A stretch of DNA of 64,000 nucleotides, from the IMG/VR virus record IMGVR_UViG_3300034683_000333. The stretch is one strand, 5' to 3'. The position numbers and the translations under genes were made by a program. Positions 345 through 64,000 of the stretch are shown here, in pieces. Position 1 is the first letter of the stretch, and each line of letters starts with the position of its first letter. The stretch is from a virus. The notes under the pieces were generated by a model, which was given only the letters and a program-made list of their open reading frames with translations, made no database searches and was not told the origin of the DNA.

Positions 345-827
345 ATGAAGCACTAGAAATATTTAAAATACATAACAAAACATAAGTAGTATGTATTTAT
401 CGAGTGTGTTAAAATGGGGATTCCATTGACTGGAATTTTCCATGATTGGAGTAAATTTAGGCCATCTGAGTGGTTTCCATATGCAAACTACTTTTTTGGA
501 AAAAAATCAAAATACACCGAGGCTAAATTTGATTTCGCTTGGTTACTTCATCAAAAACGAAACAAGCACCATTGGGAGTATTGGGTTTTGCGTGGGAAAA
601 ATGGCAAGGTAAAGGTGTTCCCTATGCCGCTGAGATACAGAAAGGAAATGTTAGCTGATTGGATTGGGACAGGTAAAGCAAAAAACAATAAAAACGACGT
701 TGTTGAGTGGTATTTGAACAATAAACATCGTATTATTCTACACTAGCATACTAGGAGATAGATTGAGCGAGAATTGGGTATTGATCCATTATTTAATCAA
801 CCGCTAAAGCCATCAAAACAAAAGTAA
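345..827 (+). CDS. HD-like metal-binding protein (DUF5662-type), 160 aa, with 4 in-frame TAG read as Trp
   Basis: GGAGG SD before ATG 345. Reads MKH*KYLKYITKHK*YVF...FHDWSKF...NKHHWEYW...EMLADWIG...ILH*HTRR*IERELG and ends TAA 825-827. TAGs at 354, 387, 744, 759. Confidence 0.7.
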
Positions 828-895
828 TGATTTTTTTCTTTACTTGTTGTCATGTATATGATATAAGATAATCAAAATAGATGGAGGAGGGTGTT

Positions 896-1441
896 ATGGA
901 AGTCAGAGTTTTCTTTTTCAGGGGAAAGAAGGGTGACATCATTGGACATTCCGAAGACGGGAAGATCGTCTTTATTGACCGAAAGTCCACTTTGATCCCC
1001 AATGATGGGGAAGCTTGGTTTGCTAGGGTTGTAGCTGAAACACGTTCGGGTCATAAGATTGTTAGCCCGGTGGAACGTGTGAGTGATCGGCAAAAACGTG
1101 AAGCCGCCGCCATGACATCGGAGGCGGTTTCTTGCGCTCGTCGTTGGGCCAATGGGGACCCGGATCGGCTTGAATTTGTGAAGAAGTTCAACGACGACAC
1201 AATTCTATATTATTACAAAAATGGTGTTGATTTTCTTCAAAGGTCGCTTTCGGATGCGTTTGATCTTTGGATGAAGACGCAAAAGAGAGTGAGAAAATCC
1301 CCCGATTTTATCCATGAGGTAATTTCGGCCATCGAACCCGGTCCCGAAACGGAACCGCCCAAGGCTCCCGAAAAGCCTGAATGTGATCGACCTGGGTTGG
1401 TTCCCCTTTTCAATCGAGAAGAGGGGGGTGTGTTTCGGTGA
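896..1441 (+). CDS. Hypothetical protein (possible small OB/TRAM-like N-terminal fold)
   Basis: ORF track 881-1441. GGAGGAGGG SD favours ATG 896. Ends TGA. Confidence 0.6.
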   Translation: MEVRVFFFRGKKGDIIGHSEDGKIVFIDRKSTLIPNDGEAWFARVVAETRSGHKIVSPVERVSDRQKREAAAMTSEAVSCARRWANGDPDRLEFVKKFNDDTILYYYKNGVDFLQRSLSDAFDLWMKTQKRVRKSPDFIHEVISAIEPGPETEPPKAPEKPECDRPGLVPLFNREEGGVFR

Positions 1442-1873
1442 TATGCGTATCATCCATTTGAGAATGTTTTCTATGTCACGGGCGTTTCGGATAGTCCCTA
1501 CAAGGGGGATCTGAAGGTTTCGAAATCTCTTCGGAGGCCCGTTGAGATCACCACAACCCAGGAAACTTTGGATTGGGATGCTTTCGGGTATCCTACGGAT
1601 TCGGTCGAGATTATGAAGAAAAAGATCCATGATGCCAGAGAACGGGCCTTGATTTGGATGGACTACGAAGCGAAGCTCGAAGATTATAAAAAGGCAAAGG
1701 CTCAGTGGCTCTCCGGTTCCGTTAGGAACCAGCTTTAGCATTTCAATTGGACCGTCGAAGATGGGAAGGTTTACGTTCCCGGTGAAGAAGGTCTGGTTGA
1801 GGTTCATCCCACGTCATGGGAAGATGTTCATGAACTCCTGGATGTGCAAAGACGGCGGGGTGGTGTAATTTAA
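1442..1873 (+). pseudogene. Protein-like open frame (one TAG at 1736, ends TAA 1873) with no usable start codon
   Basis: Frame continues directly after TGA 1439-1441 (YAYHPFENVFYVTG...RNQL*HFNWTVEDG...). No ATG or GTG near the 5' end, so a small indel or a TGG>TGA change is possible. Confidence 0.45.
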
Positions 1874-1897
1874 ATAAAAAAAAAAATGATTACTTTT

Positions 1898-1928
1898 AAC
1901 CCGGTCATTTCAAAATGACCGGGTTTTT
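1898..1928. terminator. Bidirectional intrinsic terminator
   Basis: AACCCGGTCATTT-CA-AAATGACCGGGTT flanked by T/A runs, between convergent genes. Confidence 0.8.
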
Positions 1929-2069: not shown

Positions 2070-3248
2070 TTAACAAACAAATCCAAAAGTTTCGTATTCG
2101 ATGTTGTTCTTTTTTAGAAATTCCTTTGCCTGTTCAAGCCGATACGTCTTTTTGAGAATCATGTTTTTAAGACAGTTAGCCACAATTTGTTCATCTCCAT
2201 TTTCGTAAGCCCCAAAGAGAACCGGGGAATATTCTTTGTAATCTTTCATCACAATTTCCGCAAATTCTTTCCTCGAATTAGTTGAATTACGTAAATCGTT
2301 AAGTAATTTATGAAGTTCATCAACCGTTGTGTTAAAATAGTTAACAAATCCCTGCCACAACGAAGTTACATAGTCTCGTATTGCTGTTTGATCGTTTGGT
2401 ATGTTATTCATCAAATCATCAATTTTTTCTTCGAGAACGAGACGAATAATGTCATTTTCCCGAATGCCACTTCCCGATATCAACCGATGCCGTTCAAAAT
2501 ACCAACTGGTTTTCAGCTTAACAAGTTGATCGGAATAAACCAAAATCCAACCTTCAACACCTTCCAAGGTTTTGCTCTGGTTTATCAAGTGATCCAAAGT
2601 CATGTTGTCGAATCGCCGTGCAACTGGGATATCGTACTTGGTAATGAGATTGGTTGCGTAGGGGTCGTTATAAATATCAAGGTATTCTCCAGTCGTCTCA
2701 TCCCTCATCTGAATGAGGGTAAGCGATGGTTTGTCATAATAGATGACGATCTGATTTCCCGGAGCACAATATTCAAAAATTGCCGCTTTTCCATCGGAAA
2801 TCGTTTGTTCAACGAATGCACGTACATTTGGGTTATTTTCGAAAATGATCTGTGCGTTTTTGGCCGGATCAGATTCAAATGAAAGTTTCGTTTTGGCTCG
2901 AATGTTTCCGTTCACAGGAACAAAGCGAATCATTGATCCATCGAGTTTTTCAACAACGTACAACAGGTTTTTATTTTTCAATTCATGATACTGGTAACCA
3001 TCGGTTTCATTGAGATTGAAAAATTTATGAAGATGTAAAAATCTAGAAAAACAATCCGATCCGTTTTCGACAAAAGTAAGTCCCCTCAATTCCTGTGCAT
3101 TGAAAATGGAAAAATCTTGGGGAGTCGCAAGCATATAGGAAAACTGATAGACCTTTTTGCCATCAATCAATTCTTCTTTTACCCGAAAGGAAGTAGAATT
3201 TTTAACAATTTCAAAACAAGTGTTGAGATCTGGTAAATAAAAAGACAT
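2070..3248 (-). CDS. T4 Rnl1-like RNA ligase
   Basis: Nucleotidyltransferase motifs VEKLDGS (I), EGVEGWIL (IV), VKLKTSWY (V), plus HLHKFFNLNE. No internal TAG; ends TAA. Confidence 0.85.
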   Translation of the reverse strand: MSFYLPDLNTCFEIVKNSTSFRVKEELIDGKKVYQFSYMLATPQDFSIFNAQELRGLTFVENGSDCFSRFLHLHKFFNLNETDGYQYHELKNKNLLYVVEKLDGSMIRFVPVNGNIRAKTKLSFESDPAKNAQIIFENNPNVRAFVEQTISDGKAAIFEYCAPGNQIVIYYDKPSLTLIQMRDETTGEYLDIYNDPYATNLITKYDIPVARRFDNMTLDHLINQSKTLEGVEGWILVYSDQLVKLKTSWYFERHRLISGSGIRENDIIRLVLEEKIDDLMNNIPNDQTAIRDYVTSLWQGFVNYFNTTVDELHKLLNDLRNSTNSRKEFAEIVMKDYKEYSPVLFGAYENGDEQIVANCLKNMILKKTYRLEQAKEFLKKNNIEYETFGFVC

Positions 3249-3268
3249 GGATTAAACACCCCCTTCAA

Positions 3269-3884: not shown

Positions 3885-4152
3885 TTAAGTACGAACACTA
3901 ACAAGAAGTGTTCCTCCTTTCGGAGTTATTTTGCCCATCCCCAATGTTAGACTGGCTTGTTTTGTATGTACCACTGTCCCTACCCCTCAGGACTGTTTAG
4001 GTACATGCGGCAGAGCATGGGACTTGAGCAGCATCCCATGGTGTCATGACCAGTCTAACGTAGCCCGATGGAAAGTTAATCTTTCCCATGGCTGAGGGTA
4101 GTCAACTAAGGCTTTTGCAAGCCTCCACCTCTATAGGTGGTGGGTAGTTGAC
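3885..4152 (-). ncRNA. Orphan IscB omegaRNA (second copy), truncated after the first few iscB codons
   Basis: Near-identical to the 36590-36848 region: GTCAACTACCC...GTTGACTACCCTCAG...CTACGTT...AACATTGGGGATGGG...CCGAAAGGAGG...TTGTTAGTGTTCGTACTTAA, then diverges. No iscB ORF and no right-end hairpin. Confidence 0.85.
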
Positions 4153-4523: not shown

Positions 4524-7500
4524 ATGCCTAAAACAAAATACGAACAAACCGAACCCAAAATGATCGATCCAGAAATTTCTGGTGCCGCTGAAATGATTGG
4601 TCAAAGTCTTGAAATGCTTTCAACCGCTGTTTCTAAATTTGAACGTGCGGGATCGGCGGTGGATGCATTTGCCACGAAACTTCGTTCGGTGAGTGAGGGA
4701 TTTTCAAATGCCTTGTCAACACTTAATAAGTTGGCAAGTGGTGGTGGAGGTGGCGGAACACCGTCGGGAGTTGGCGTTGGTACTCGACCTTTGCCGGGTG
4801 ATCCCACATCACTATTGCAACAAATCAGTCAAATGTGGGGTCAACCTTCCCCGTTAACGGGCCGTAGAATGGGTGCTGGTTCGATTTCAAAATTATTGTC
4901 AGAACAAGCCGGGTATTCACAAATGGATGTTCAACGTCTTATTAAAGAAGCTCAACGTGGAGAATATGGAGATGTTTTTAAGAGAAAATTAAACGAATAT
5001 GTTCACCAACCCAACTTGGAACGGATGCAGACAACGAACATGGCTCCGTCTTCCAACGTGGCACGTACATGGAGCGATGTTCAATACCTAAATCGAAAAC
5101 TTTCCGATTGGGTTGAAAAACAAACCCAGCGAATTGCTTCACTTCCAGGACCGGAACAACAACGACGGTCCATGGGGCCGACACCACAGACGCAACAACC
5201 ACCGTGGTATGCACCCACTCAGCCTCAACGTATTGCTTCCACGGCCCTTGTCCCGGTATCTCAAGTCGGGAAAACACCCCCACCACCCCCACCTTCTCCC
5301 GCAACTCCTCCACCGACGGGTGGTCCAAAGCAGTTGCCTGTCCCGACCAAACCCCAGGTTATTGTTATTGAACCTAAAGATATACCACGTAGGGGTGGGT
5401 TTGGTCCAACTGCTACTGGTGCCGGTGGCGGTTATTTACCACCTCCTGGTGGCCCTGGTGGTGGAGAGGGTAGAAACTGGCGAGATTGGGAACCACCCCC
5501 TGGTGGTGGAGATGATGGTGGTGAATCTGGTGGTAGTCGTGGCGGTGGTGGAAGGATGGATGATTTTCTAATGACATTTGAGATGATGAACCCATTTGCG
5601 CCGAGGAACTTGGCGTGGTTGGGAATGTTTTCCTTTTCTGGTCAACTCTAGCCTGCAACCATGGCCCTTAGTCAACCAACCATGATGGCTGGTCAACATT
5701 ACCAAAATGTCGTGGAAGGTCTCAAGCAATTTGGATCTTCTTTTTCCGGGCTTCCAAGGTTATCTGGTTTATTTCAACAAATTATTCAAACAGATGCCTT
5801 TGATCTTTATGAATCAATGCACCAAAGTTTTACTGTTTTGAAAAATGTGTATTCAAGTTCAACACGTGCAGAAAAGATTATGGGACAATCCATTCAGTTG
5901 GCCCGTTCAACTCCCCTTGAAGTACGAGATCTTTTGGGAATCTTTTCAACATTTTCGGTTAACCCCGAACTTCGTGGGATTTTAAGTAACAGGCAACAAA
6001 TGACTCAATTAGCAACGGGTGTTGCTGGTTTATCGTTCTTAGTTCCAGAACAGGGAACGGAAGGTGCTATTTTTGCCATTCGTGAAGCTTTGGCTGGACA
6101 ATACCGATCCATTAAACGCCGTTTTAATATTTCACCCGAAATTATTGCATCATCGGCTGGTATGACGCTTGGAGAACTCAAGGAAAAACCAGTTTCATTC
6201 CTCGAAGCACTTGATATATTTTTGAAACAAAACCTTGGTCAAAATACATTTACGGAACTTCAAGATACATTTACCAAACAGGTTGGAAATATTTATGACT
6301 CATTGATGGGTGGAATTTTCCGTGGTTTCAGGGAAACGAGTATATATTCAAACGTGACGATGTTTGCCAAGGAAACTAGTAATGTTGTGGATCGTTTGTT
6401 TAAATCAGACGTATTTGGTAATTTTTTTCAAAATTTCTCTCAAAGTATTAACACCAATTTTACTCGTGCTGTTGATGTTCTAAGAACGATTGATTTTGAT
6501 CGTGATCCACCGGAACAAATTCGTGAAAAAGCCCAAAATGCTTTTCAATATGCCTTTTCGAGTATCATTAAGGACACGATTCCAGCCGTTGATGCGTTGA
6601 AGGAAGTAGTAACGCCTATTGCAAGTAAGCTAAGTGATGCCATGATTTCAAGCATGAGTCGAACGGTTGGATCAATTTTTACTGGAATGATGGGTGCCGG
6701 TGTTAAACAAACCATTCTATTGGGAACCAGTGTTGCCAGTAAATTGGTTCCTGGAGAAACGCTTTCGGGTGCAGTCGAACAGATGGGAGAATCGTTTGGT
6801 ACGTTCGCAACGGAAAATCCGTTTTTAACGATTGGTGGACTTGCCGTTGCAAGCAAGGGAATCATGGGTCGTGTAAGGGGATTTCTCACAAGACCGGATG
6901 TTGCGGATGCCGGTGGGGTGCTAAATTACCTGAGTGCTAGGGCAACCCAAAGTCGTGGAATTGGATATTTGATGAGTCAATCCTTTTTGGGTTCACGGGC
7001 GGCGATCCCAACCTTCATGGCTCCGGCAATTCTTTACCAATTTTATCGAGATTATCAAAAAATTCAAGAAGCTACCAAAGCTCAACCAGTTGATTACGAA
7101 CAACAAGCCGATATTCTCCAATATATGGCGGCCCGTCCAGGAGCACCCATTTCTGATATCATGGATCAGATCAACGCTCTTGGAACCAACTTTGAAACCG
7201 AAAAAATCCGTTTCGGTTATGGTGATATTGCCACCCACTCACTTCTTGCCGGAAGTCTCGCTTAGGGTGCTTTGGGTCGTGTGACTCCCGATTGGGCACT
7301 ACAACGCATCGGAACTCTCCCACAGAACCGCTTTGTGAATGCGTTTCGTCGTCCAACCGCCTGGGCATTGGACCGATTGGCCTCCATGTCAACCCTTCGT
7401 CGTCAATTTTTGGGAGCGGCTGGAGTTGGATCAGCCGTTGGACTTGCCGGACTTATGATGGAAGGTGATATTGATGTTTCTAAAAGATTCATGGCAGATT

Positions 7501-10037
7501 ATCGCCAAGGTGTCGGTTTGGTTCACACACTTGGTAGTGGTCTTTCCATGTTGGGATTTATGACAGGTAATCCTTACGTTGGTTTGGCTGGAGTGGCCTT
7601 ATCTGTTGGTGGTGAGTTTGCTGTATCTAAGTATTACGAACATAAAACCGACGAATATAGAAAAACAATTAACAAACGAATTGAAGAAAACCGACAAATT
7701 GTTAACAAACAATTATCTTCTTATCTTAGTATATTGGATAAACAACCAGAAGAAATTGTAAAAACACTTTCTCAAGATACTGGTGAATTATCCAATGTTC
7801 TAGGACTTATTGATGTTATGGGTACGAATTGGTCACAGAAACGAGATGAGTATTTTTCAAAACTTGTTTCTTCTGGTGATATTGGTCAAGAACGGTCTCA
7901 AAAACTAAAAGGAGTGATTGCACGGAACATAAAGCGAATTTCGTCAAATGAAAAACAATATAAGGCTTTAATGGATGCAATTGGTAAGAGTAATGTGGAA
8001 AGAGTGAAGGATATTCTTAGTTTAACTTCAGAAGATGTCGGTGGAATTAGAAATGAACAACTATTTTTATCTGCTATTATGGCAGAAGCATTAAATCTTC
8101 AACAACAGTTGCAACCAACACTGGCGACGGATCTCATGTCAACGATTACTCAGTCACTTATCGAGCGAACGAGAGGAACTGCATTTGGTAATGTTTTAAG
8201 ACGAAATTATACGGGTGAAGTGCAACGTACACGAACCATATTTTCATTGGATAGACAACAAAGAAATCTCAATCAAATTAAAGAGTCTTTAGAGGATGTT
8301 TTTACTGCTTCTATAATGACTTCGATGCCAGAAATGAAGCTTGAAAAAGCGCAAAATTTGGCTTCAAAGGAAGTATCTCGTGTTTATGATCTGGATAAAG
8401 TTTCTGGTATCATGAACACATTGCGTCAATATGCTGTATCTGAAAGAAATTTTTATGAAAGTCAGGTATTTGGTCTTGATGAATTTGCTAAGTCGGAAAT
8501 AAACCGAAATGCTGGTCCACGAACAATTTTTCAAGAAGCTGACGAACGGGTAAAGGCGCTTCGTCAATTTGATCAACAATCTATTGGAAGATTGTTCTTA
8601 AGTAGAAGTGTTGATATGTTCGGACAACAAAGCGCTTTGCCGTGGATTGGTTATCAGTTTGCACAGAAAAATCCACAGATGATGAGTCCAGAACTTTTTA
8701 GAGAATTTTCAACAAGAACAACAGATTTGTACGGACAAATTTTTGAAAAACAAGTTTCACAGTATTGGAATGTTACCGCAACAGCAAGAACTTCCATCGG
8801 AGAACTATCAGAAGGTATAAACAAGTTCAAAAATGTTGCAACAGAAAGTCAACTAAACGAAAGCATTAAAAAATACAATAATGCTAAAAATGAGTTTATT
8901 GATAGTGTTGTAAAGCTTATGGATACACGTCCCATTGAAAGTGCAATTGATAAGAATACTCGGCTGTATGATATGGCACCAGAATCCATAACATCCCAAC
9001 AACTTGATCGTGAAAAAGTTATAGAAAAGATTACTAAAGAAGCTGGTACTTGGGATGTTAATAAAATGCGTGAATATCTAATGGGTGAAATGACACGTGG
9101 ATTGGCACCCGAAGAACGTGGTACCATGCTTGAACGTATTGATAAGGAAATTTTACCAAAATATGGCGAAACTTTAAAATTTAAAAACGTTTCATCAACC
9201 GTGGAAAATCTACGTTCGTTTATGCAGTCATCGACGGAAGAAATTACTCCAATGTTGGTACAATCCATGAATGCACAGCAGGTACAAAATGTTTATGCCA
9301 CGATGCAAAATTATTTGGAACAGGTATATGGTGGAATGGGAACATCCATGAATATTATGGGTATGATGGCTGGTGGTGTCCAACAAACCCTTGGGGGTGG
9401 TGGCGGTCTATTTGGTTATGTGGGAATGGGCGAAACGTTGCTTCCTGGACAAATAACCGTCGGGGGTGTTCGGGCCACCAACCCCTTTGTTCTATCCGAA
9501 CAGCGAAAACTCGAAGAGGAGTCCCAGATTTCATAGGAAGATCTCAATAAACTTCAGGGCCAGCGATCCGTGGTTCGAGAACAATGGACACAGCAAATGA
9601 GCAAGGTCCTGAACTTCATGGTGGAAAATCCAGAACAGGTTGATCCGGCCATGCTTAAGCAGGTTGCGGAATATCAAAAGATGGGTGTATCCATGGGATT
9701 TGGGATGAGTGGAGAACAACGGGCCATGCTTGCCCAGGTGCAACTCAACATGCTCTCCAGGCAAGGAGAAGTTGTGGGATCGTTTTTTGATGAGATGCAA
9801 TCGGGTCGTATGGGGCTTGCCAAGGACATTCTTTCCCTTGCAGGTCAATCGGGTCTCGATTTGGGCGAAATCGGTGGAAAATCTCCCATTGATGATCTCG
9901 TTCGAGCAAAAGACGGAATTGTTGGAGCACTTCAAGAGCTTAAGGAATCGCTTTCCAATGCGGCAAAGGACATCGGAGAATTGTTTGAAAATCTTGGTAC
10001 CACTCCCGGTAGCCGGGTGGAGGTTCCCAGTCCATGA
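4524..10037 (+). CDS. Tail tape measure protein, 1837 aa, 3 in-frame TAG
   Basis: Track ORFs 4524, 5661, 7272 and 9570 share one frame and are separated only by TAG (5649, 7263, 9534). Ends TGA. Has the tape-measure-like motif GAIFAIREALAGQYRSIKRRFNI, Ala/Gly/Leu-rich helices and a Pro/Gly-rich linker. Confidence 0.8.
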
Positions 10038-10957
10038 AACGAAAAATTATTCTATTTTGTTTGATGATCGTTTTCACTTGGGGAACGGTTTATTCCATGG
10101 GTTGGGTTGGGAATAATCCAACCCAACCTATTTCTGAACAAGAAGGTTCTGATGTAAAAGATGATTCGATGGAAAAGCCGGTTATTGATTCAGTATCCAC
10201 ACCACAAAAGATTTCCATCACGAAAGAGTGGTTGCAAACGATTAAAGATACATTTTTGGAACAACACGATGAAATGTTGGAAATTTTGAGTGAAAAATAC
10301 GGTATCGAAGATTACAAGAAAGCATCGCAATATAAGTTTCGTGTATGTGGTGCAAAATTTTACAATTGTTACGTAGAAAGTCGTTATAAGTATTTTGTTT
10401 CCTATGCAAAATACATTGAGAAATAGGGAAAATTTTATTTTAATTTAGATTATGATGAATTGGCTTTCAGGCTTATTTCATCTATTGCTTGGTGTGAATC
10501 TGGATTTAAAGCAAATTTGGTAAGCCCCGATGGTGGTTATGGAGCTTTTCAGGTTACTCCATCGGCGGTTGGAGATAAAACAATTGATGTTTCCCGACTT
10601 TTGAATCCAGATTATAATACTCAACAAGGAGTCTATATTCTTTATAAATTTTGGAAATCTTCATTTGATCTACTCCCACGAAGTCTTAAAGAATATGACG
10701 AAACGATTCGGTGGTAGATCACGTTACGTGGATATAACGGTGGATATAAATGGATTAAGAGAATTCTGGATCGGTGTGTGGAAGAAAATGACTATCAAGC
10801 TTTTATCGAGACTGTAGTTTCGGGTGATTTTTTGAATACAAGTAAGTGCAACGGTAGATTTTTATGTTACGAACGTGTCAATGTATCCTACCCAATCAAA
10901 ATATATATAACAGAAGACTGGTTACTTAAATTAAATATAACGATTGGGGGGTTTTAA
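10034..10957 (+). CDS. SLT-family lytic transglycosylase with N-terminal signal/TM segment, 307 aa, 2 in-frame TAG
   Basis: Motif I AWCESGF, motif II GYGAFQV. Motif III TLRGYNGG lies beyond TAG 10715, so readthrough is needed for a complete domain. Ends TAA overlapping the next ATG. Confidence 0.8.
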
Positions 10958-11469
10958 TGGAAAGAACATATAGAAGGTCCACCCGTTTTTCTACATATAC
11001 ACATTTCGAAAAAGACGAACTTGAAGATATTATTGATGAAATAAAGAAAACGGGTGTAATTCCTAAAGGAAAATATATTTCTCCGCCACAAATCGAGCCC
11101 TTTTTAAAGGACTTGTACTTTAGATTACAAGATATGTACGAAGATGTGAGAAACGGGAACGTTGATGATTCGACGAAACGATAGTTTGACATGACATTTG
11201 ACCAAATGAAAGCCGATTTCATCAATTTAAGCCAACCTATTTAGTTACCACTTATCAAAAAATTCTAGATCGGAAATTCCTTCAGAGAATTACAACACAC
11301 CGTTATAATAAAAATAATGGAAATTTTAAATAATAATACATATAATAAGGATAAGGCGGCTATTACGTCGTGGATTTACGAAAATGTATACTGGGTCCTT
11401 TTGAAAAACCTCAAGGATGAAAAAGAATATGAACAAAAAATGCTTACTTTAATTGATTTTGAGGGATAA
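10957..11469 (+). CDS. 170-aa protein with sigma-factor region-2-like pattern, 3 in-frame TAG
   Basis: Reads ...FINLSQPI*LPLIKKF*IGNSFRELQHTVIIKIMEIL...KAAITSWIYENVYWVLLKNLKDEK and ends TAA 11467-11469. Similarity judged by eye only. Confidence 0.35.
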
Positions 11470-33415: not shown

Positions 33416-33468
33416 TTTTACATCCTCCTAATGAAAGAGTTTAAAAAGCAACGATCATTATTAAAGCT

Positions 33469-35280: not shown

Positions 35281-35298
35281 GCGAGAAGTCTCCACCTT

Positions 35299-42094: not shown

Positions 42095-42173
42095 TTTAGA
42101 TACTCCTTTCACGTCTCTCATCTAGTATATTTTTTGTGGTTTGTACTATTAGTATATTCTTTAATGACAAATA

Positions 42174-42182
42174 AACTAATTA
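42174..42182 (+). promoter_or_regulatory. Putative late-promoter motif AACTAATTA
   Basis: 51 nt upstream of ATG 42233. Confidence 0.6.
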
Positions 42183-42232
42183 AACAACACGGAAAAAACA
42201 ATACACAAAACATTTTTTTTACCGAGGGCGAC

Positions 42233-50580: not shown

Positions 50581-52866
50581 TTAGACCAACGTAAATTTAA
50601 AAAACCTTCTCTATTGTCCGTAATGTTCTCTTATGTTACCATAACTAACTATATACCAGTCTGTTGTGAAATTAAGGGTACCTGCGTATGGTCTTAAATC
50701 AATTAGAAAGGGTCTTGATACATTGTTAAAATCGATATGTTGCCAACCACCGTCATTCCACCAAATTTCAAGATTTAGAGTGCTAACGGGATAAAAGAAT
50801 AACATCAGAAAATCGAACGCCTCTCCTGGATTGAAATAAGAAACAAGTGCACCTTTTCCGGGGTTCTGCAAATTACCATAGGTAATATCTTTGATATTCC
50901 ACCGTGAATTACTTACAGTTTCGATGATTGTTGTATCACTACACGCATATACAGTTCCATATTCCAATAGTTTAATTTCATCAGCAAAATTTGGTAGAAC
51001 CTGTCGTATCTACGGAGTTGCATTAGTATACATATCCATATAAGTCTAATCAACTAATGGAAAACCATCAAAACCATTATAGTAACCGCCTGTAAACTTA
51101 GTATACGTACCACCGAACACAACAAACTTTTTGTCGTCTACCTGAACAACACGCTGTCCATAAGCGGGACGAAAGTCAAATTGATACTGTGAAAGTTTAT
51201 TATTCATGACATCTAATCTGCTAATGGTATTAGAAAGTATCGACTTCGTGAAAAAATCATTATAAGATGGTTGAATCCCTTCTTTAACTTGTGCAACGGC
51301 TTTCCAAGCGGTCCAACCATCAAACGTACCGTCGGCGGAATTGTAACAACGTGGAATAATGGCGTAAGCAGGATCAATACAAATTGCTATCCTTGACATT
51401 GGACTATACCAAGGATCGCCATTTTCGTAATTCGCTATATCAACGACTGTTTGATCACTCCATTCATACTCCTTAATCGTCCAAGCCAATTCACCACTAC
51501 TAACCTGATCCGTGAAGTAAATGATATACACATCAGAAGAGGATATTGAGTTAGTCTCCGTTGCCAGAAAAGAGCGACCACCAAAATTATTATAATTATA
51601 TAAAGTTCCATCCTATGTCATAACTGACATGCCAGTATATGTCGAATAACCATAGGCATATGCTGTTTTTCCTTCATCATAATAAGTTCCAGATGAATTA
51701 TAGTTGCAAAATGGACCACCACCAAAATAAACATACCCAGCACCATTTTCTACATTAAAATCATGTGTATAACATTTAGAGACTAAGGCCCCATATTTAC
51801 CGGTTGTATAATCTGTCATGCTAGATACTACAGTACGATCTGTTGATTCATTCAACGTTAACTGAAGCTGGTGGTGCATGATGGAAGTTCCGTCGGCAGG
51901 ATTCAAACCACCATTTATATAAATTTTAATATCGGCGGTTTTATATAGTGATAATATTGGCCCAATGGATGGGTATGGATTAGTCCAATCAGTAGAATTA
52001 TCACTGTTCTTGACAATTGTGTAACTAGAAGTATCAAGAGAATATGCATATAAAAATTGATTTACTGTATTATCATCTTGATACCAGCCACCAGCCATAT
52101 ATAAACTATTGTTATATGGTACCTAAATGATATCATGCTTTGCAAGTGGAATACCAGTGTTAATTATTGTATAAGAACTTGGATTATTTTTTACATCTGG
52201 AAAAACAATTAGTTCATCACTTATATTTCCACTGGCGTCATATCCACCATGTACATACATTCTCGTTCCATCATAACATGCGGCGTGCCACTTGTTAATC
52301 ACAACATCCATCGGGGCGGAATAACAACCATAACATTTTGTATCAAAATAAATATTACCATCCTAATCTTCCTGTTTTATCGTCTTGAAGGTCATAAGTG
52401 TTGCATTTGGACTATCCGAGTGTTCAACGTAAACAGAACTAGTTACAGGATTCTTATAGTCATCGGTATCAGTATAATGATACATCTCATCTTCTTGAAC
52501 AGTTAGATTCTGTACTTTAGGACTTACATCGAAAACCCACACATCAGTTGAATCCAAGCTTACACACAAAATCCACGTTCGATTATTTGGGATAAATTTA
52601 GTGGAACTATATATATATCCACCAGTAACAATAAATGATTTGACTTTATGGTTTAAGTAGGTTTGTGTTCCTCCAATTTCGTGTACATGTTGCATACATA
52701 TATTATCCACACCAAAAAGAGTTGAAAAATCAAACAAAACGACTTCGTTGGTATTTGAATTAAACACATAAAGGTTTGTATTTACCTAACTTGGGTCTGT
52801 TGAATGTAGTCCAACGTCTTTTCCATAAGTTGTGTCAACCTTAAGCTAAGCTCTATCGTATGCCAT
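50581..52866 (-). CDS. Kelch/beta-propeller protein, 761 aa, 8 in-frame TAG
   Basis: TAGGAG SD and ATG 52866. Kelch-like RMYVHGGY, LYMAGGW, YVYFGGG and FVVFGGT motifs. Ends TAA 50581. Confidence 0.7.
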
Positions 52867-53553: not shown

Positions 53554-54759
53554 TTAAATTATTTGTTCGTCTTTAGAAGACATCTCAACAAATGAAACTA
53601 CCTTAATACCTTCAGATGTGAAAATGCTTAGTGGTAAACCAAAATCAACAAATATATAGCGACTCTCAGCCTCACTTTCCTCGACTGGTTGTACATTATT
53701 ACTAACAATAGTTAGAATACTATTTAGTGTTGGAAAATAAAGTCCTGGTAAATAATTATAAATTGTAAAATCAACTTTTGTGCTAAATGTTCCAACAAAA
53801 CCGTTTGTAAGATCATCACATTCAACACGAAAATGATAATCAACATCCTCTTTCATAGTAAAGGGATGTGCATATTGTCCAGTTGTAGAGTGGGTGTTTG
53901 AAAATAACGTCGTTCCATCAGAATCCACAAGTGAAACATTCAACTCGTGACTTGTTGTAACATCATAAGTAAGGACTTTATTAACAAAAAGGTGTGGTTC
54001 CTGTGAAGATAGGGTGTATTCCAGGACAACCGCACCGGATGGTGTATTGTCTGTATCAAAATTATAGGAAAGATCATAATGTTGCGTATCGGTTAGTTGA
54101 AATTGTGGATGATGAATGAAAAATAACGAAGAATCTTGGTATTGCTAAGATGTAATATCTGGTAATTTAAAAGAGTCAATAGAATAAGTACTATAAATGG
54201 TAGTGTTGTCACTTGTGTTTCGCTAAAATATAAGTAGCAGGTCATTTTCAAGATTAGAATTAATCGTTGATTCTGTATTGTCTCTAATATAAAACTTTCG
54301 TACTAAGTTAGAAGTTGTAGAATAATCGTAAGCAATTATATTGTAAAAGTTATCATATGTGGAATCAACTTTACCTGTTTTTATTGAATCATTATCCTCA
54401 TCACCACTGACTAACAAAACGAAAATTTGAGAAGAGTCTGTCCACGAAGCAACATTTTCGTGTTCTTGTAGTTCAAAGATTTCCTATTCGTCGAAATTAT
54501 AGAGATTTATGAGATTTGTGACATCCAACACACTCAATTTTTCAATGATAGCTTCGACATAAGTGACATCGGAAACGTTTCCGTGACCCGAAATGTTGTT
54601 TAGAACCCAAATCATAACTTGATCATTAATGTAATTATCTACTCTGATTTCATGTGTATCATCACTTTTAGTTACAAAACCAAAATCTTTCAGCGATGGT
54701 GTATAAGATTTGTATCCACGTGTAAGTGCTACATTTGTTATATCGAGTTTTACAGCCAT
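53554..54759 (-). CDS. Putative virion protein, 401 aa, 3 in-frame TAG
   Basis: Joins track ORFs 54484, 54223 and 53554. Ends TAA. Confidence 0.65.
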
Positions 54760-54777: not shown

Positions 54778-57700
54778 TTACCGAATATATTTTACAGTTG
54801 CTTTGTATGATAAATTGGTACCATCACTTGTTGTCACTTTAATACCACCTATTTGTTTTTTATTTTTAAATTTACCCTTAATTTTTACCTTTTTAGCTGT
54901 AGTTGTGAAGAAACCGAACTTCGGAGGCTCCATTTGCTCAAATTGATCTTTCACGGTAAAATCATAATTATAGTTCCATATAGACAACATTTGTTTTGCT
55001 AACTTGTCGTGTGGAATCATTGGACCAATAACAAACAAGTAATCACCAGCTTCCCTATCCTATAATCTAAACGACTGTAACATATTTTTCTATTCTGGAA
55101 TAATAATATGTTCCAGGTTCGTATCAAGAATACCACCAAGCGGTGTATTCAAAGGTGTGTCAGATTTACGAACGATACGTACTGGAGATACTTGTAAATA
55201 CATATAAGTAGGATATTTGCGTGTCATTTTCAACCGCATGGTAGTGGAATCAACATTTGATAGTGTATAATCACAACCATTTACATAACTAGTCGAACTT
55301 GAATATCTGTGTGTATACGTAAAAGCAAACATATATGGAGACAACTTTGATGCATCATACGTTCCATCCATGGTAAAGTCCATGGTGACAGTAGACAAAG
55401 AATCCATGAAAAATCCATTACGAGCTTCGTTTTCGCTAATGTTGCTAGGTGAATAATATCCTATTACATGATCCTAAAAATTCCAATCAACCGAATTGTC
55501 TATGTAATCCAAAACAAGCGTGAATCCAAAAAGATCCAAACTATCAGCAAGATTTTCGACAGATTGATCATATTGTTCTGGTATCGTAGCAACATCCGTT
55601 GCAACGGTTGGTAAAGGTGTTTTATCTGAATGAAGAACAACATATGAAAATGGATATCCGGTTATGTCAGTAACAAAGTATGAAAAATCAACTGGTGTAA
55701 AATCTGGATATTTAAGTTCCGATGAAGCAAAATTATAAGCAAATCGATTATACTTCAAAGATATGGTACCAACGACTCGTGGTTTGGTTAGCTTATAAAG
55801 TTCTCGTTGAATTACATATTCATAATTCGGATAAAAATTATCATACATAGCATTGGAAAATGGAACAAAAACAAATTCAGTATTATTCTGCAAATCAATT
55901 GTTAATAAATTCCGTCCTTGTTCATTGGACATAATGGCTTTTGTTCCACCATTAGAACTAGCGTTACCATAAACAATTTGATCCTATGTAACCGATCCAT
56001 TTTTACACGAATCAACAAAAGCGGTTTCACTGTTAATATAAGCAGAACTAAACGGATTAAGTGCTGGATGAGATAAAAAGGTTTCTTTTGAAAAAGAATT
56101 TGAATAATCAACAAATGTTAAGTCCAGATCTATAAAAACATCATTGAAATTGTATAGATTTCTATCTTGGGATTGACTAAGTGTATATACTATGTAAGGA
56201 AAATAACCATCTACAGTATAGTCAATTGAATCGTATACATCATCTGAGAATACTATGGTATTGTCCCATAAATCATAATTCCAAGTCGATAACCAAAATA
56301 CGTCAAAATCAAGAGATACACGCTTCACAAATTCTGGAAATACGATGGATGTCTTGAATGAAGTGGCGTCCCAAAGCTGGGGTACATTGTATCCAACAAC
56401 CTTCCCTGAACGAGTTTTTTGACGGTTGAAATCAAAAAGAACGATCGGAAGACCATTGTGCCAACGCACCGTTGGATGAAGCGAATTCCAGAAAATGTAC
56501 TCATGTTCCAAATCAACATCTTCAAAATTTTCATAAAAGATCAATCCATCATAAATGTCAACCGCATCGCTTTCAAACAAAAGATGATTTCGTGCATCAA
56601 TGTATCTAAGTTGATCCATTTCCCTATCATAATAAACAATAAACTTTGGATTTGGATCAAACCAATATATTAGAGTTTCTTGTTGGGGTTCTGCAATTGA
56701 GGCATTAAAAGCCTTATACAATAGTTGATGATAGTTATGAATGTTGTCAATTGAATAACAAAGATGTCCATAAGTAGAATCAACATTATCGTTGGCGTAG
56801 TGATACGTGCAATTCACCTTATTGCAATAAACAATGATCTCATCAAATGTCTGCACATCATAATTATAAAAAGTAAGTGACAAAATGTAATAATCATCAT
56901 TTTCATAAAGACGATCCACAATTACTTCACCAAAACGCTTTACCAGTTCAATATGTTGATAAGTTGTGTCGTTTATGATGATATCAATGGTATGCTCATG
57001 TTTATTGATAATTACGTTTGTTGGTGATAAAGTAGAATCCGTATAGAATGTCATTGGCAACTTATCAAGATATGCTGGGTTGAATGTACCATCGGGGCTT
57101 AGTTCGCCACCATAGAGAAGATTATTGTCATAAAACTCTATAAAGAAACGTGAATCGTCGAGGTTTGTTTTATAAAGATTGTAAACACCCAATTTTTCAT
57201 CGATTATCGCATTCGCAGGAACATTCATTGAAAAAAGTCTTCCAGAAACTTCATTGTAAAACCACCAAATGTCCCCATATTTTGCCAACGGATAGGCATA
57301 AAGAAGACCCGTAACATCCCAGGAATGAGTCAAACTAGCTTGAGCTGATTCGTCGTGCCACCAAACGGATTTCTAGGTCTTATCAGTTGTGGCGTTGAGG
57401 TTTCCAAACACGGTGTGATCCTGAATGTAGGGAATTGATACTTCCAAAAACTTATCAAAATAAGGAAGACTCACGTAGACTAATGGATTACTTGAAAAAT
57501 CGAATGACAAATGAGAAATCCAAGGAATCTTCTTTGCAATCTCCCACTGAAGCGGTGAATGGATGTTTTTAACCACCAATTCTGTACTCATACCCGTGGA
57601 ATCGGTGACATCCAAATGAATGGCAAAATCATTCACCCGAGTAATCGTCGTTTCGACGATGTTTGACCAATCCACCGCAGGATTTGGCGTTCCCCAGTGA

Positions 57701-60700
57701 AAAACGGTTTCTTGATTTGTTAGATCATAAGTTCCAAGATCAAGCGAACCGGTTGTAAATCTCCTATACGTTTCTCGATCTTCGGATACAAGATCATCTG
57801 CCGCCTCCCACTTGAGCCAAAAATGCATTCTCGTCACAAAATCCCCCGTAACTTGAAGGGTCGTCCCATCAAATGAAAAGGTCGCTGGAACAAAATCCGT
57901 CGTCCAGTCGTTTGATAGGGTGGCCCATAGATGATTTCGATCGTCATTGAAATTGCAACCCGAAACGGATGTGTTGAGATTTGTGATGTCCACCTGACGC
58001 CAGTTGAATGCAAGCTCCAGATTGATCTTGGCATCTCTTAAAAGCGCCTAGTGAGTGGAATCGGCTGTAAGATCGTACTTGTATATTGCCAATTTATCCT
58101 TTTCAGTTCGATTGAACGTTCTGCCAAAACCCAACACCCAGTCGTTACCTTCGTTGGTTGTCCAAACCGTTCCCGTTTCCGGGTTCCATTGCTTTGGTGA
58201 AAGAACTGGAAAATAGATATTTGAGTGGAGAATGGGCTTTTGGACCAATTTTTCCGGTTGTTTTACTGGATATAGAAATTCATTTGTCGTTTTATCAAAC
58301 GTACCGGAAACGGGTTTTACAAGTCGTGTCCAAACCGTAGACTAAATTTCGGGGTCCTTAGACTAATAACCATACGGTAACAGCACAAAATCGTCACACG
58401 AAATGACACCATCGGTTTCAATTAATCCAACTCCTTCTGTAGTACGCTGAATCCAGCGCATATCATAAAATCGATTCGTTTTAAATACGTAATTTGCCCA
58501 TACATATCCATTATAGGACGCCGAAAAACAATCATTCGTTGGAACATAAAAATACTTCCACATTGCATTGTGATAATTTTCCAGACTAATATACGTTGAG
58601 TCAAAATTCTATTTACCAAACTAACCAAGACCACTTAACCACATTTCCTTCTTTTCTGGATGAAGTGTTGATGTATAAATCGTTGGAACATTATCAAGAA
58701 CTTCTTCATTGAGCAGTTCTGGAACCTTGTAGGATGGTGCGTAATAATATCGTTTTTTATCGCTAGCTTCGAGTAATACATATTTACTAATATCTGTTTT
58801 ATAACTTATTGTGTAATAGTTATCAAACTTTGCTCCTAGAAGCCTTGTATGAGTATTCACATCTAGGTGTTGTCCGTAAATAGAACTTAATTCTTCGGTA
58901 TAATAGGGCTTCCCATTTGTTCCTTGTCGAGATGAACGTAATTCCAATGTATTTTGAGTGTGTATAAGTAATTTAGGATAATTTATTGATAACCAACCAA
59001 AATCATACCGATCATAAATTTGGTATTCAGATGGATATGGAAATTGAATGTCATATTCATCTTTAAAAATCAAATCATAATTGTCCGATATTCTATCGAA
59101 CCTGGACAACCACAAATACATTCGATCCTGCGGCTAACGCTGTGCCATTAGAGTTCCATGCGCCAAAATCTAACTATACACATTATCATTATCTAAAACA
59201 TATTCATACTTTGTGCTGTTAAATGTTATTCTATTACCGATTCTTGAATGACTAACATTTGGTGGATTAGAAAGATCCACGATAAATTGATAAAGCGAAC
59301 CACTCGCATCAAAAAATATTGGATCTAATTCTATTGTCCATATAAACCATCTGTTTGTCTTGTGATCCTAAAACGTCTAGTGTTTATTATATCCTGTGTT
59401 ATTATAATTCCATAAGAGACTTTCATCACTAAGATAATAAGCATCTTCTTCGACCCATTCCGTACCATCCACAAGACTCATAAACACAATCATAGGTCGT
59501 TTGCTTTCTGAATAATAGTTATCTGTAACGTCTTCTGGGCCGATGAATACAAATTTTGTGTCGTCAATTTGTTCAAATGCCTCTGCTAACCCAATGTACG
59601 TATTGGGAATGTCTGGTAAATCAATCCAAGTTGATGTATCTAGATCAAAAAGAGCTAAATTCTAAGGCTTGGTAAATCCACCCTAACTAAATCGCTTATT
59701 GATCATGTGAACCTTATTGTTCCTAACAGTAGATGGCAACCACATCGTATCTGATGTATTGACACCAAGTCTCTCAACTGAACGGTTTTCTAAATCATAT
59801 AATAGTGTCCCAACCCCATCAGGATTCCATCCACCAATAGTACCCTACGAGTACTTACGGACAATTAAATATCTACTATTAAAATAAAAAATATTAAGAT
59901 TTGTCATTCCAGCATTATCATTTATCTAACTTTGTAATGATGTTCCGTCCCATCGAAATACTTTACCAGTACCTTGATCGTAGTGAAACAGTTGTGTATT
60001 ATCTACAGCAAAAACGGAATCCGTGAAAAATGAATAAAACAATTCGGAGATCTATGTATTTTTCTGAAATACCTTCAACGATGGATTATTGAATACTGTC
60101 TGGTCAGCATTAACCGTTACAGAGTCATAATCATATAAAATATCGTTTTTAAAGCTGTTAGTTATAACAATGGATGTTTCATCAATATGCGTCACATCAA
60201 ATGATCGCACATCATATTCAGGTAATTCATATCCTTTATAAATAAAAGTTGATGCTGTATAATCCGGTGAAATGGTTAATGTAACAAAACTATCAACAAA
60301 TGACTAATGTTTGGTAAATACGCCAGATGAATCAATTTGTAAGAAACCACGATTACCTGGAATATCCTCTTCTGCTACATCAAACTTACCCTTTAATGAA
60401 CTGTGAAGTGAATAGTATTCTGTATTATATATAAAATCATAATAACCAAGACTCTAATTTCCTGTAATATCGTTTATTGTGCCACCATAAATATTATAGA
60501 CTTGCTTATATGCTGGATTCTAATAGGCTGCTTGTACAATATATGGTAATGTTCTAGGAATAGTAATTTCTTGTACTGAATCAACAAAAATACTACCCAC
60601 ATTAATAAGACTCTTTCCAAAAATTGTAGGATCAAGTGAATTTATCAACCAACCACCGCTACTTTGTATGTTATAAAATTTTACATTGTCCCAAAAACGT

Positions 60701-62313
60701 GTTTCAACAAAATCATACGGACGAGATATTACACCGAATGGCGTCCGCTTGACACACGGATTGCTCTTTGACCACTGACCCAACGTAGCAACCGGAGCCG
60801 CATCATAGGGTCGGTTTCTTGAATACGTAAACGTTCCAACCATTGGCGTTCCATTGATAAACGAAATCCTCGAAACATCGCTCACGATTGTAACATCAGA
60901 CGAAAGTTTAAGCTTGTTACGATTGATCCAATAAATTCCAGTCGTAGTATCCACCAAAACATCTGTGAGCGAAAAAGTATCTTGGTCGATAACCTAATTT
61001 GAAATGGAATAATCGATAAGTAGGTTATTCAACGGATGAAGAATAAGCTTTGTTGAATCGATGAGATTAGAAACTTCATGCTGTAATGTATCTGAATTAA
61101 AAACTACCTGGATCGGCACATACCCCACAACACCGGAATTGAATTGAATCATCATTTGATAGCACGAAACATAAGTTGTTTCATCCGTGTGTTTATGTAT
61201 GTTTGAAGATTGAATTTTTATGAGCTTAGCTTGTGAAAGTAAAGAATTGTCTATAAAGTTTAAAACATTAAACGTTGTATCAAATGAACCGTTTTTTCCG
61301 GTATACCACTTATTTCTTACAGATTCGAAAGTTGATCGTACTTCACCTTCTTTATGTTCTGGAGCATATTGTAGTAGTAATTTGTGTGTTGGAATAGTAT
61401 AAATATCATTAGAATTTATAAGCGGCGGAGTCGATAAACCCTAATTATATGTTGGCTAGTCATTCCACGAATATCCATAAAATGCGGAACCGTAGTTTAC
61501 TGATGTACTATCCAAGCCTCGAATAGAATATTCTTTTGTTATTGGAGAATATTGAAAAAACTTCCAATTCCAATCGAATGAATACTTATATGTTCTTATT
61601 ACAAGGTTGGTAGAATCCACATACATATCATAGAAAACTGAAGTCACATTATTTGCTGGTTGTCCAGAAATGAGTGCAATGAATGATTTTCTTCGGTGCT
61701 TAAAAAGATTATAAAATTTTTCCTGAATCGTAAATGAACTCTTAATAATGTCGTTTGGTGGAACAAAAAGATGCTTAATCGCTTTCTTATTATATACCGC
61801 ATCCACAACCTTTGAAAAATCCGTGAAATCCGTTTCCAAAACCTTAAAAGAATGAAGAATCAATTGGGGTTTTATTCTTTGATGGGTTGAATCAATAAGT
61901 AAATCTTCTACAATAGGATCACTCACTTTAGCTAATACGTCATCGAAATTGATGGAAAGATTACTATCAAGATAATTATACCAATTGTTTACAAGATCTT
62001 TTCCATATTGTTCGTTACTAGCAAGATTATTTTCCAATTGGATCATTTCATCAACAAAAATATTATTTAACCGGCTTGCATAAACATTGAAACAAAACCA
62101 TTTTAACGAATCGTTTCCTATAGTCTTATAATCAAAGAGTGCATTCTTGTTATTTTCGAGTGTAAAATCACGCAGTGGTGTCTTGATGGCAACCCATTCC
62201 ACACCAGGCACGGCATAAATGGACTCATCAACATATTCTGCAAAAAATTCTTGTGTTTCTCTCCGCTAATCAATAATCTTCTAATCCAGGTTTTTAACCG
62301 AAAATTTATTCAT
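54778..62313 (-). CDS. Giant beta-rich putative tail/baseplate/receptor-binding protein, 2511 aa, about 27 in-frame TAG
   Basis: Hand translation from ATG 62313 (GCGGAG SD) to TAA 54778, using the ORF track inside its ORFs, found no TAA or TGA. Joins ten track ORFs plus about 1.4 kb with no track ORF (59122-60519). Confidence 0.75.
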
Positions 62314-62347
62314 AAATGGACTCCGCTATATTTAGGGTAGCATTCAT

Positions 62348-62358
62348 ACTAATTAGTT
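62348..62358. promoter_or_regulatory. Palindromic ACTAATTAGT, a bidirectional copy of the putative late-promoter motif
   Basis: Lies between divergent ATGs at 62313 (-) and 62393 (+). Confidence 0.6.
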
Positions 62359-62392
62359 GATATGCAAAACTACAACTCGGAGCAAAGACAAC

Positions 62393-64000
62393 ATGTTCCT
62401 AACAACGAAGCAAACTACATTCAATCAATTATCTAAAATTGAAACCGTAACATCTGTCATTCCTTCCAGCGTTTTTTATGACGATGTTTCAACCTATGGA
62501 AATATCATTCAATAGAGGGAAAACATTTTGAAAACTTATTTTGATGAAATTGTGCAAAACGGAGGAAGTATAAAGATTTCTAAAAACAACGACATTTATA
62601 TTACGAAAGATTTTGAATCACTCTACGAATCCGTTGCCACCATGTGGGACGGCGACTCGTGGATGGTGGACAAAGATTATTACTTCTTCAACGTAAGCAC
62701 CGACGAACGTTGGGTTCAATCCAATGCGGAATGGGAAAAATGGAAATCCAACCGTGCATGGAGCATCTTGGAACGCTACATGGACGAGGACGACCTGGAT
62801 CGAGCCCTCGTTGACTATGCCTATTATTTAACGAAAATTGACGAAATACGTGATGAAATGGCCGAAATTGTCTTTGGAGTTGAAACGCCACTTTATAACT
62901 GGCTCGAAAAGGCCATACCAGAAATATCCACCATGATTGATTCGCATGAATTGATTGAAATCCTTCAAACAATGAAAATCCGAACACTTAACATTTCCAA
63001 GTATACCGATAAGCGTTTCTGGTTGTTTGGTTTTCTAAAACGAATCTATCCTTTCATTTACATGAAAGCTGGGGAAATTAAACTTTTGGGACATGGTGGT
63101 CTAATTGAATCTTACGAAGATTTTACAAATAACGTAAATATTGAATCTATGAATCACCTTTATTCGTCGATTGCTGTTGACAAAAAAAACCTGATGACAA
63201 TCTGTAAATGGGTAAATGATGAATATTACCTTGAAAAACTCGGAAAACTAAAAAAATGGATGTTTGACGACGAAGTACGAAAAACCGCAATCGGGGACGA
63301 AGACATAATCGAAGAATCCGTTGAAGTTGAAAAGGAAAATAAAGGAACGTACATCAATATTGAAATGAAACTCGATAACGCCGCCGCAACGGCACGACTT
63401 GAAGAATTCCTCGAAGATACGTTCAAGGATATGGTTTGGATTGGAACAAAAAATATCAACTATTCGAATAGCAAAACAAAATACTTCGTAGATTATGGAG
63501 TAAACGTACCGATATCTCAGTTTCAAGTTCAGAAAAACGAATCATTCAAACAACGGGAAGGTATTAAATTTGTTGTTGCTTTTGTTTTTAGTTATGATCC
63601 AGATCTATTCGATTTATGGCAATATGTAAAACAAGGTCGATTCATCACATGGCAAACTTTTCCAATTTGGACACAAAAGGATTTTAATCTATCGGGGAAA
63701 GAACTTATTTCCTAGCCGCTTCTAAATAAACTGGAACTGCCACCAGATACAATGGAAACAATTGAATATGAAAACTGGTCCATGGAAGATTACGAGTACG
63801 ATACAACTTACATTAATGACGGATACATCAAAGGCGATTACCTCTATATGACAAAGCGAAGTCAAAAAACAAGCGCAGGATATCTTGGCTATGAAGTAAG
63901 TATCAAAATGAAATTACCAAGGAGCATTTATTGGAATGATGGAGCTATTTCAGTCATTACAAGAGATAAAATTTTTAATCTGCATACAGTTGTCTCTCTT
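62393..64000 (+). CDS. Large hypothetical protein (over 535 aa, runs off the window), 2 in-frame TAG
   Basis: GGAG SD and ATG 62393. TAG at 62513 and 63713. Frame stays open to 64000. Confidence 0.65.

Follow-up and report, generated by a model that had tools for sequence, protein, structure and literature searches.

Phages that use a genetic code unlike that of their host have been described with two reassignments only, namely TAG to glutamine (Gln) and TGA to tryptophan (Trp) (Borges et al., bioRxiv 10.1101/2021.08.26.457843; Cook et al.). In the phages using NCBI genetic code 15, comprising crAss-like, Lak, Garnet, Topaz, and Agate phages (Borges et al.; Peters et al., PMC9523058), amber serves as a sense codon mostly in structural genes, a tRNA(CUA) is encoded by the phage, release factor 2 (RF2) is present in some members, and some genes avoid the recoded codon. 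The TGA-recoded Jade phages, which carry a tryptophanyl-tRNA synthetase (TrpRS), a tRNA(UCA), and release factor 1 (RF1), and the phage-derived AP1 TrpRS:tRNA(UCA) pair (PMC12636597) represent a stop-to-Trp reassignment involving a suppressor tRNA and a codon-sparing release factor. In the latter study, 162 phage tRNA(CUA) genes were screened, and the 29 analyzed in E. coli extract were assigned to Gln (28) and Ala (one), and none to Trp. The pattern of TAG-to-Gln and TGA-to-Trp recodings, supplemented by TGA-to-Gly in phages whose hosts use the same code, has so far been explained by the acceptance of suppressor tRNAs by the glutaminyl-tRNA synthetase (GlnRS) and TrpRS of the host. An amber-to-Trp variant, which breaks this pattern and would be new among stop-codon-recoded phages, is supported here by the analysis of a 64,000-nucleotide stretch of viral DNA (IMG/VR record IMGVR_UViG_3300034683_000333; the whole stretch is referred to as the window), in which the genes of a T4-type phage contain in-frame TAG codons.

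The window phage shares with the code 15 phages the use of amber as a sense codon and differs from them in the amino acid, which is Gln there and very probably Trp here. Compared with the Jade phages, the recoded stop codon is UAG instead of UGA, and the release factor, found in a relative, is RF2 instead of RF1. Outside the phages, UAG is read as Trp in NCBI table 32, the plastid code of the Balanophoraceae, likewise in AT-rich genomes (the GC content of the window being 37%), whereas the lineage, a plant organelle, and its machinery are unrelated. A further point of comparison is E. coli su+7 (supU), a tRNA-Trp with the anticodon CUA that receives mainly Gln, attached by GlnRS. Like su+7, the tRNA(CUA) of the window phage appears to combine a body resembling tRNA-Trp with a C35-to-U change and would read UAG; unlike the situation in su+7, the phage codon is located at Trp positions, and the phage tRNA features U73 and C1:G72 instead of G73 and A1:U72. 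No case of a TAG/UAG-to-Trp code in phages was found in the literature searched, and searches for wordings that assign UAG or TAG to Trp yielded one relevant paper, dealing with organellar translation in holoparasitic plants. This agrees with a first-pass annotation of the window, made from the letters alone, which had regarded an amber-to-Trp code as undescribed in phages. With a probability of roughly 0.88, we propose that the window belongs to an uncultured T4-type phage (gp23 capsid, gp17-type terminase) of approximately 195 kb, in which UAG would encode Trp and only UAA and UGA would act as stop codons.

Within positions 333-64000 of the window, approximately 120 in-frame TAG sense codons are spread over 42 genes; counted over the 19,779 codons of this gene set, TAG occurs 120 times in frame, and TAA and TGA do not occur at all. 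Each of the 41 complete genes is closed by TAA (31) or TGA (10). The first-pass annotation, which had given about 115 in-frame TAGs and genes ending in TAA or TGA throughout, was therefore right on both points. Doubtful cases among the 120 are the TAGs in the 5' extension of the UDG gene, at the C-terminus of the IscB-like open reading frame (ORF), and in the small ORFs 33044-33451 and 872-1807. The comparison of coding densities that had been suggested gave a clear result, since ORFs of at least 100 amino acids (aa) account for 95.7% of the window when TAA and TGA alone act as stops, versus 78% under table 11, with the number of ORFs nearly unchanged (105 and 103, respectively). The largest ORF under table 11 comprises 909 aa, compared with 2518, 1866, and 1599 aa when TAG is read through, and the read-through yields proteins of 2511, 1837, and 1598 aa; under table 11, the window falls into fragments. 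The features by which recoded phages are recognized, i.e., a single type of in-frame stop and the restoration of full-length genes by read-through, are both present, the latter for the terminase, capsid, SLT transglycosylase, and other genes, in which homology continues past the TAGs without a break. Only three TAGs are located in the last 15 codons of genes, versus 3.8 expected, and there is thus no sign of TAG acting as an end-of-gene stop. TAG is a sense codon in this phage. Reading TAA as sense was also tried and rejected, since the coverage of 93.8% obtained in this way was inflated by spurious overlapping ORFs (209) and does not count as evidence for a recoding of TAA.

The window sequence is not an artifact. 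A match of 99.8-100% to the window was obtained for 12 further contig pieces (L004, L005, L007-L010, and L017-L022; JGI, Logan/SRA, and ENA assemblies), which originate from at least 11 samples, and none of the 21 single-base differences among them affects a TAG. Furthermore, proteins of the window were found on many contigs of independent assemblies, the longest having 195,227 bases. These data bear on the view that TAG is still a stop codon in split or decayed genes, or that it represents a sequencing or base-modification artifact of TGG. Callers using table 11 (the JGI calls) indeed deliver fragments; however, the in-frame stops are TAG without exception in the window (120/120) as well as in the homologous genes of six relatives (66/66), no gene needs TAG as its end, homology crosses the TAGs, the 12 pieces show no difference at any TAG, with 330 TGG codons still present, and a dedicated tRNA(CUA) is kept in three lineages. 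This view is accordingly given next to no probability, and, as far as the sequence goes, TAG as a stop is already refuted. Within the phage collection, no match was obtained for 22 kb of the window DNA, nor by tblastn for the 2511-aa and 1598-aa proteins, and exact and peptide-pattern scans of viral_contigs retrieved nothing close, only terminases at 23-29% identity.

The amino acid was approached by comparing the window with six relatives at codon level (L002, L011, L013, L015, L016, and L041). L002 is a 1.1-kb metagenome contig (GC content 29%) with a terminase 55% identical to that of the window, and the five longer relatives were found via homologues of the terminase, of a phosphoesterase, and of the 413-aa protein that lacks TAG. 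All six in-frame TAGs of the L002 terminase are located opposite TGG codons of the window terminase. Across the relatives, 56 TAGs have a sense residue opposite them in the window, which in 25 cases is Trp encoded by TGG, compared with a Trp frequency of 1.4% (binomial P ~7e-32); the remaining TAGs face Tyr (7), Leu (6), Ile (4), and scattered other residues, and Gln is not among them. Seen from the window, the relatives carry a TAG opposite 25 of 182 aligned Trp sites and opposite none of 377 aligned Gln sites. In the terminase, 14 pairings of a relative's TAG with a window TGG were counted, distributed over nine distinct Trp positions. Considering sites with a local identity of at least 0.35, the BLOSUM62 log2 likelihood was -126.7 for Trp, -218.7 for Tyr, -229.5 for Phe, and -267.7 for Gln. 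The same code is seen in at least six related contigs, which come from different samples, and the lineage is not a single oddity.

These values speak against the reading of TAG as Gln (NCBI table 15), which is the code of crAss-like, Lak, and other recoded phages and under which the Trp signal would be an accident of the alignments. Gln is the sole amber reassignment reported for phages, database gene calls translate related contigs 'with_TAG=Q', and, as a point that also counts against Trp, the well-aligned terminase TAG at 12753-12755 lies opposite CAA (Gln) in two relatives, in a variable column (Q, E, I). Opposed to this are the absence of any relative's TAG from the 377 Gln sites as compared with 25 of the 182 Trp sites, a likelihood approximately 140 log2 units below that of Trp, Pfam scores for Gln no higher than those for an undefined residue (X) in three families, and the location of the database 'Q' residues in columns where other relatives have Trp. 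Code 15 would place TAG at Gln columns, and none of the relatives' TAGs was found at a Gln site of the window; TAG was found at Trp columns, with TAA and TGA still acting as stops, which is the pattern of code 32. Gln is considered extremely improbable.

The TAGs of the window itself are opposite TGG five times and opposite TAG five times in the relatives, Trp or TAG being the counterpart where the alignment is best, and these ten pairings are located at positions 10424 and 10715 (SLT transglycosylase), 15570 (capsid), 11242, 11266, and 5649. In the SLT transglycosylase (10034-10957, plus strand), the TAG at 10424-10426 faces Trp and TAG, and the one at 10715-10717 faces Trp in both relatives. 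The gp23-like major capsid protein (14745-15896, minus strand) contains its TAG at 15570-15572 within YFVD*EY (the asterisk marking TAG), a motif pointed out in the first-pass annotation and found as stated, and the three relatives have TGG, TGG, and TTC at this codon, i.e., Trp, Trp, and Phe. The 170-aa protein (10957-11469, plus strand; three TAGs) has TAG 11242-11244 opposite TAG in two relatives, and 11266-11268 opposite TAG in one relative and AAG (Lys) in the other. The tape-measure-like protein of 1837 aa (4524-10037, plus strand; three TAGs) has TAG 5649-5651 opposite TAG in L015. In the T4-type large terminase (12399-14141, plus strand; three TAGs), the TAG at 13386-13388 falls into an aromatic column (Y, Y, Y, W, W, F, F). 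For the fast-evolving 769-aa protein, the alignments are uninformative at most TAGs.

Protein profiles and a solved structure point in the same direction. The Pfam bit scores summed over DUF5662, AdoMet_dc, and SLT were 235.8 for Trp, 228.5 for Tyr, 228.2 for Phe, 224.5 for Leu, and 223.3 for both Gln and X. Trp scored best in each of the three families separately, with Tyr, Phe, and Leu all below it (Trp versus Gln: AdoMet_dc 63.1/55.4, SLT 39.9/36.8, and DUF5662 132.8/131.1), and Gln equaled X in all of them. The AdoMet decarboxylase-like protein (41684-42121, minus strand) carries the TAG at 41828-41830 in the motif HT*PE, where the solved Aquifex AdoMetDC (PDB 2iii) has Trp (HTWPE). In the DUF5662 protein (333-827, plus strand), four TAGs are located at 354, 387, 744, and 759, and the homologues using the standard code have Phe/Ile at 354, Trp/Trp/Ile/Asn at 387, Pro/Glu/Pro/Pro at 744, and Trp/Tyr/Leu/Leu at 759; the DUF5662 proteins of Moorella phage MTATph1 and of an environmental podovirus both have Trp at 387, and Trp or Tyr at 759. 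Within the window, the all-versus-all BLAST of the proteins yielded one informative pair only, encoded by two paralogous genes (26683-29430 and 29481-30518, minus strand; 43.5% identity), in which a gap-free alignment places the TAG at 30126-30128 opposite a Trp of the paralogue. Of the remaining motifs brought forward earlier, CTNCEKV*SEKG was located at 41643-41645 and its counterpart CNHCGNVWKRKG near 41143 on the minus strand, whereas the repeated *DG, of which two copies are indeed present in a Kelch protein, is weak as evidence. The two neighboring small Cys-rich (zinc-ribbon-like) ORFs concerned (41391-41687 and ~41143, both on the minus strand) have the common motif CxxC...V(W/TAG)xxKG, with the same position being TGG in one ORF and TAG in the other.

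No tRNA was detected within the window by ARAGORN and Rfam. Outside the window, ARAGORN identified a 77-nt tRNA with the anticodon CUA at L023:154-230, and an identical copy is present in L024. These contigs were reached by homology, since the tRNA(CUA) of L011 adjoins a Metallophos gene whose orthologue, P0048, is located on L023/L024. P0048 is likewise encoded on a contig 195,227 bases long, a length equal to that of the longest contig carrying proteins of the window, L023 and L024 originate from the same samples as window pieces, and they share a 107-base repeat with the window; the contigs L023/L024 represent the same phage as the window. The tRNA scored 72.8 bits with the Rfam tRNA model and features a canonical cloverleaf with an encoded CCA end, a class I structure with a variable loop of 5 nt, the anticodon loop CUCUAAA, and the acceptor strands CCCCGUG/CACGGGG with a C1:G72 end and the discriminator U73. 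Its strongest blastn matches among the annotated tRNAs of the phage collection, as judged by the lowest E-value for a single aligned piece, were mycobacteriophage tRNA-Trp (83.6% over 67 nt, E 4e-10), and the tRNA-Trp matches span the D arm, anticodon arm, variable loop, and T arm. A tRNA(CUA) with the same loop is also encoded in the relatives L011 and L041, where it lies between a UDG and a Metallophos gene, and the L011 tRNA gave no blastn match in the phage collection. A comparison of gene orders (L011, L041, and L013 versus the window) revealed that UDG, tRNA(CUA), and Metallophos are immediate neighbors of the capsid block in the relatives, while the terminase occupies this place in the window phage.

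Taken together, the relatives, the Pfam and PDB references, and the proximity of the tRNA(CUA) to tRNA-Trp support the first-pass proposal that TAG is Trp in this phage, which, judged from these alignments, is very probable. Another residue, such as Tyr, Phe, or Leu, a non-standard residue, or ambiguous decoding would be conceivable in view of the Tyr, Leu, and Ile residues faced by TAGs of the relatives, the Tyr, Phe, Leu, Val, and Lys residues faced by window TAGs at poorly aligned sites, a tRNA without the known Trp identity set (U73 or A73), and an anticodon loop that deviates by one base from a tRNA-Tyr loop. However, Trp leads Tyr by approximately 90 log2 units at well-aligned sites, Pfam favors Trp over Tyr and Phe in three families, and the spread over Tyr, Phe, and Leu matches that of true Trp sites, as the Trp residues of the window face Tyr 19 times and Phe 11 times in the same alignments. 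Moreover, the class I tRNA with its short variable loop is unlike bacterial tRNA-Tyr, tRNA-Leu, and tRNA-Ser, and the canonical cloverleaf is unlike tRNA-Pyl. A residue other than Trp is therefore regarded as unlikely.

Several observations weigh against Trp. The amino acid has been assigned from alignments only, and the TAG sites of the window are poorly conserved overall, with Trp or TAG opposite in 10 of 55; based on the window's own TAGs alone, and with all low-identity sites included, the likelihood is uninformative. A weak, sub-threshold Kelch Pfam match scored lower with Trp (37.7) than with X (41.3). Bacterial TrpRS recognizes G73 and the anticodon CCA; these identity elements are missing in the tRNA(CUA), the discriminator being U73 in the window phage and L011 and A73 in L041, and the three tRNA(CUA) lineages differ in the acceptor stem as well. 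Trp charging is thus not explained by the tRNA sequence alone. Furthermore, a motif scan detected no TrpRS motif in any fetched locus, and 51 kb of one relative contain RF2 without a TrpRS having been seen, so that the charging step is one that we infer. The usage of TAG also lacks a clean early/late split, as the DUF5662, AdoMet_dc-like, and small zinc-ribbon genes have TAGs, and several genes of the structural block carry none.

Regarding the release factor, the phage represented by L011 encodes an RF2 (L035:237-1250), which scored 392.7 bits with TIGR00020, above the NCBIfam prfB cutoff of 370, and has the SPF and GGQ motifs. RF2 terminates at UAA and UGA, not at UAG. In the contig from SRR18053989 (L035:237-1253), the RF2 gene ends in TAG followed immediately by TAA, which would allow correct termination with or without TAG being read as Trp. 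In the replication block of the same phage, 20 of 26 listed ORFs are free of TAG. An exhaustive search with this RF2 gave matches at 39-59% identity only, none of which led to the window phage. The search for a tRNA, a TrpRS, and a release factor recommended in the first-pass annotation was thus successful for the tRNA(CUA), in the same phage, and for RF2, in a relative, and not for a TrpRS in the fetched loci.

It has to be considered whether TAG=Trp is the code of the host, an undescribed bacterium or archaeon, with the phage merely matching it. The phages of TGA=Gly bacteria do share the code of their hosts. However, a tRNA(CUA) is encoded by the phage itself and by its relatives, one relative has RF2, and many genes avoid TAG. 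In addition, the RF2 gene ends in TAG-TAA and the IscB-like ORF has a TAG ten codons ahead of its closing TAA, and a TAG with a second stop close behind fits an environment in which TAG can still stop. To our knowledge, there is no bacterial UAG-to-Trp code. A host code is hence deemed highly unlikely.

In the proposed phage-specific reassignment, the tRNA(CUA) would be charged with Trp after infection, either by a divergent TrpRS encoded by the phage or by the TrpRS of the host, and the charged tRNA would outcompete the RF1 of the host at UAG. Genes free of TAG could then be translated under the host code before the switch, which would apply to the RNA ligase and SNF2 helicase in the window and to the replication block and RF2 of the relative, whereas TAG-heavy genes, i.e., those for tail-fiber and propeller proteins, would depend on the switch. 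TAG accounts for 27% of the Trp codons of the window (120, compared with 330 TGG), and for 33-60% in the tail-fiber and propeller genes. Eleven genes are without TAG, including those for the RNA ligase, the SNF2 helicase, DUF488, a 905-aa protein, and the 413-aa protein. This distribution is compatible with the code-switch timing model of other recoded phages (Borges et al.). As a tentative extension, to which we give somewhat less than even odds, a lineage of large phages might possess a self-contained kit for a code undescribed in viruses and bacteria, consisting of an amber-reading tRNA with a Trp-like body and a non-bacterial acceptor identity (U73), a divergent TrpRS of the phage, and, in part of the lineage, RF2, which would switch the cell from UAG as stop to UAG as Trp and thereby gate the TAG-rich virion genes; tRNA and synthetase would then form a natural orthogonal Trp amber-suppressor pair.

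An amber-to-Trp code raises the question of how a CUA tRNA avoids charging with Gln and obtains Trp. If a dedicated TrpRS exists, the tRNA/TrpRS pair would be a naturally occurring candidate for orthogonal amber suppression with Trp. For databases, the translation of TAG as Gln places false Gln residues in Trp columns of the terminase, and, more generally, TAG-bearing proteins of this lineage would hold Gln in place of Trp in collections called in this way, by which homology searches and structure predictions would be degraded. For the relatives L015 (10001-11797) and L016 (10001-11800), the proteins in the public collection were translated with TAG=Gln (e.g., P0007 and P0009).

The Pfam names assigned in the window comprise DUF5662, Rnl1-like RNA ligase, SLT transglycosylase, T4-type large terminase, and gp23-like capsid protein, and furthermore UDG, DUF488, RRXRR+HNH (IscB-like), SNF2 helicase, AdoMet decarboxylase-like, and Kelch propellers. 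The Rnl1-like RNA ligase is encoded at 2070-3248 on the minus strand without any TAG, and the SNF2 helicase at 38410-40605 on the minus strand with 11 TGG and no TAG. The large tail/fiber-like and Kelch-propeller region (41993-62313, mixed strands) is composed of TAG-rich genes, namely 41993-46789 on the plus strand with 20 TAGs, and, on the minus strand, 47947-50256 with 12, 50581-52866 with 8, 53554-54759 with 3, and 54778-62313 with 27 TAGs. The window closes within an 848-aa gene containing TAGs, of which it includes the 5' part (62393-64000, plus strand) and which ends approximately 940 bases beyond the window. The other retrieved assemblies of the phage all break 0.07-0.6 kb after this gene, at a dispersed repeat. 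This intergenic repeat of approximately 107 bases was found at 113-219 of the window, at L023:14974-15080, and at L018:238-329 (~1.3 kb beyond the window end), with the copies being 93-97% identical. It bears CCACTT-N-AAGTGG hairpins, and contigs of several independent assemblies end in or beside a copy. The repeat may serve as a terminator or promoter element, or may be a miniature mobile element.

Two HEARO RNAs (163 and 160 bits) were located at 36628-36848 and 3926-4152, both on the minus strand. One of them lies directly upstream of the RRXRR+HNH (IscB-like) ORF (35269-36606, minus strand), and the other copy, 94% identical over 268 nt, is solo without a nuclease gene. The HEARO family is known as the guide-like RNA of IscB nucleases. 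Under table 11, the IscB-like ORF ends in TAG, and reading this TAG as Trp adds nine codons before a TAA is reached. In the HMMER alignment of the AdoMet decarboxylase-like protein, ...CSCSVHT*PE is found where 2iii has ...AESHISIHTWPE; the usual Glu-Ser self-cleavage site may be altered, and decarboxylase activity may be lacking in this protein. Finally, the ATG at 22128 is replaced by AGG in the strain variant L010, and the Logan gene call begins at 22140; this gene probably starts at 22140 and not at 22128.

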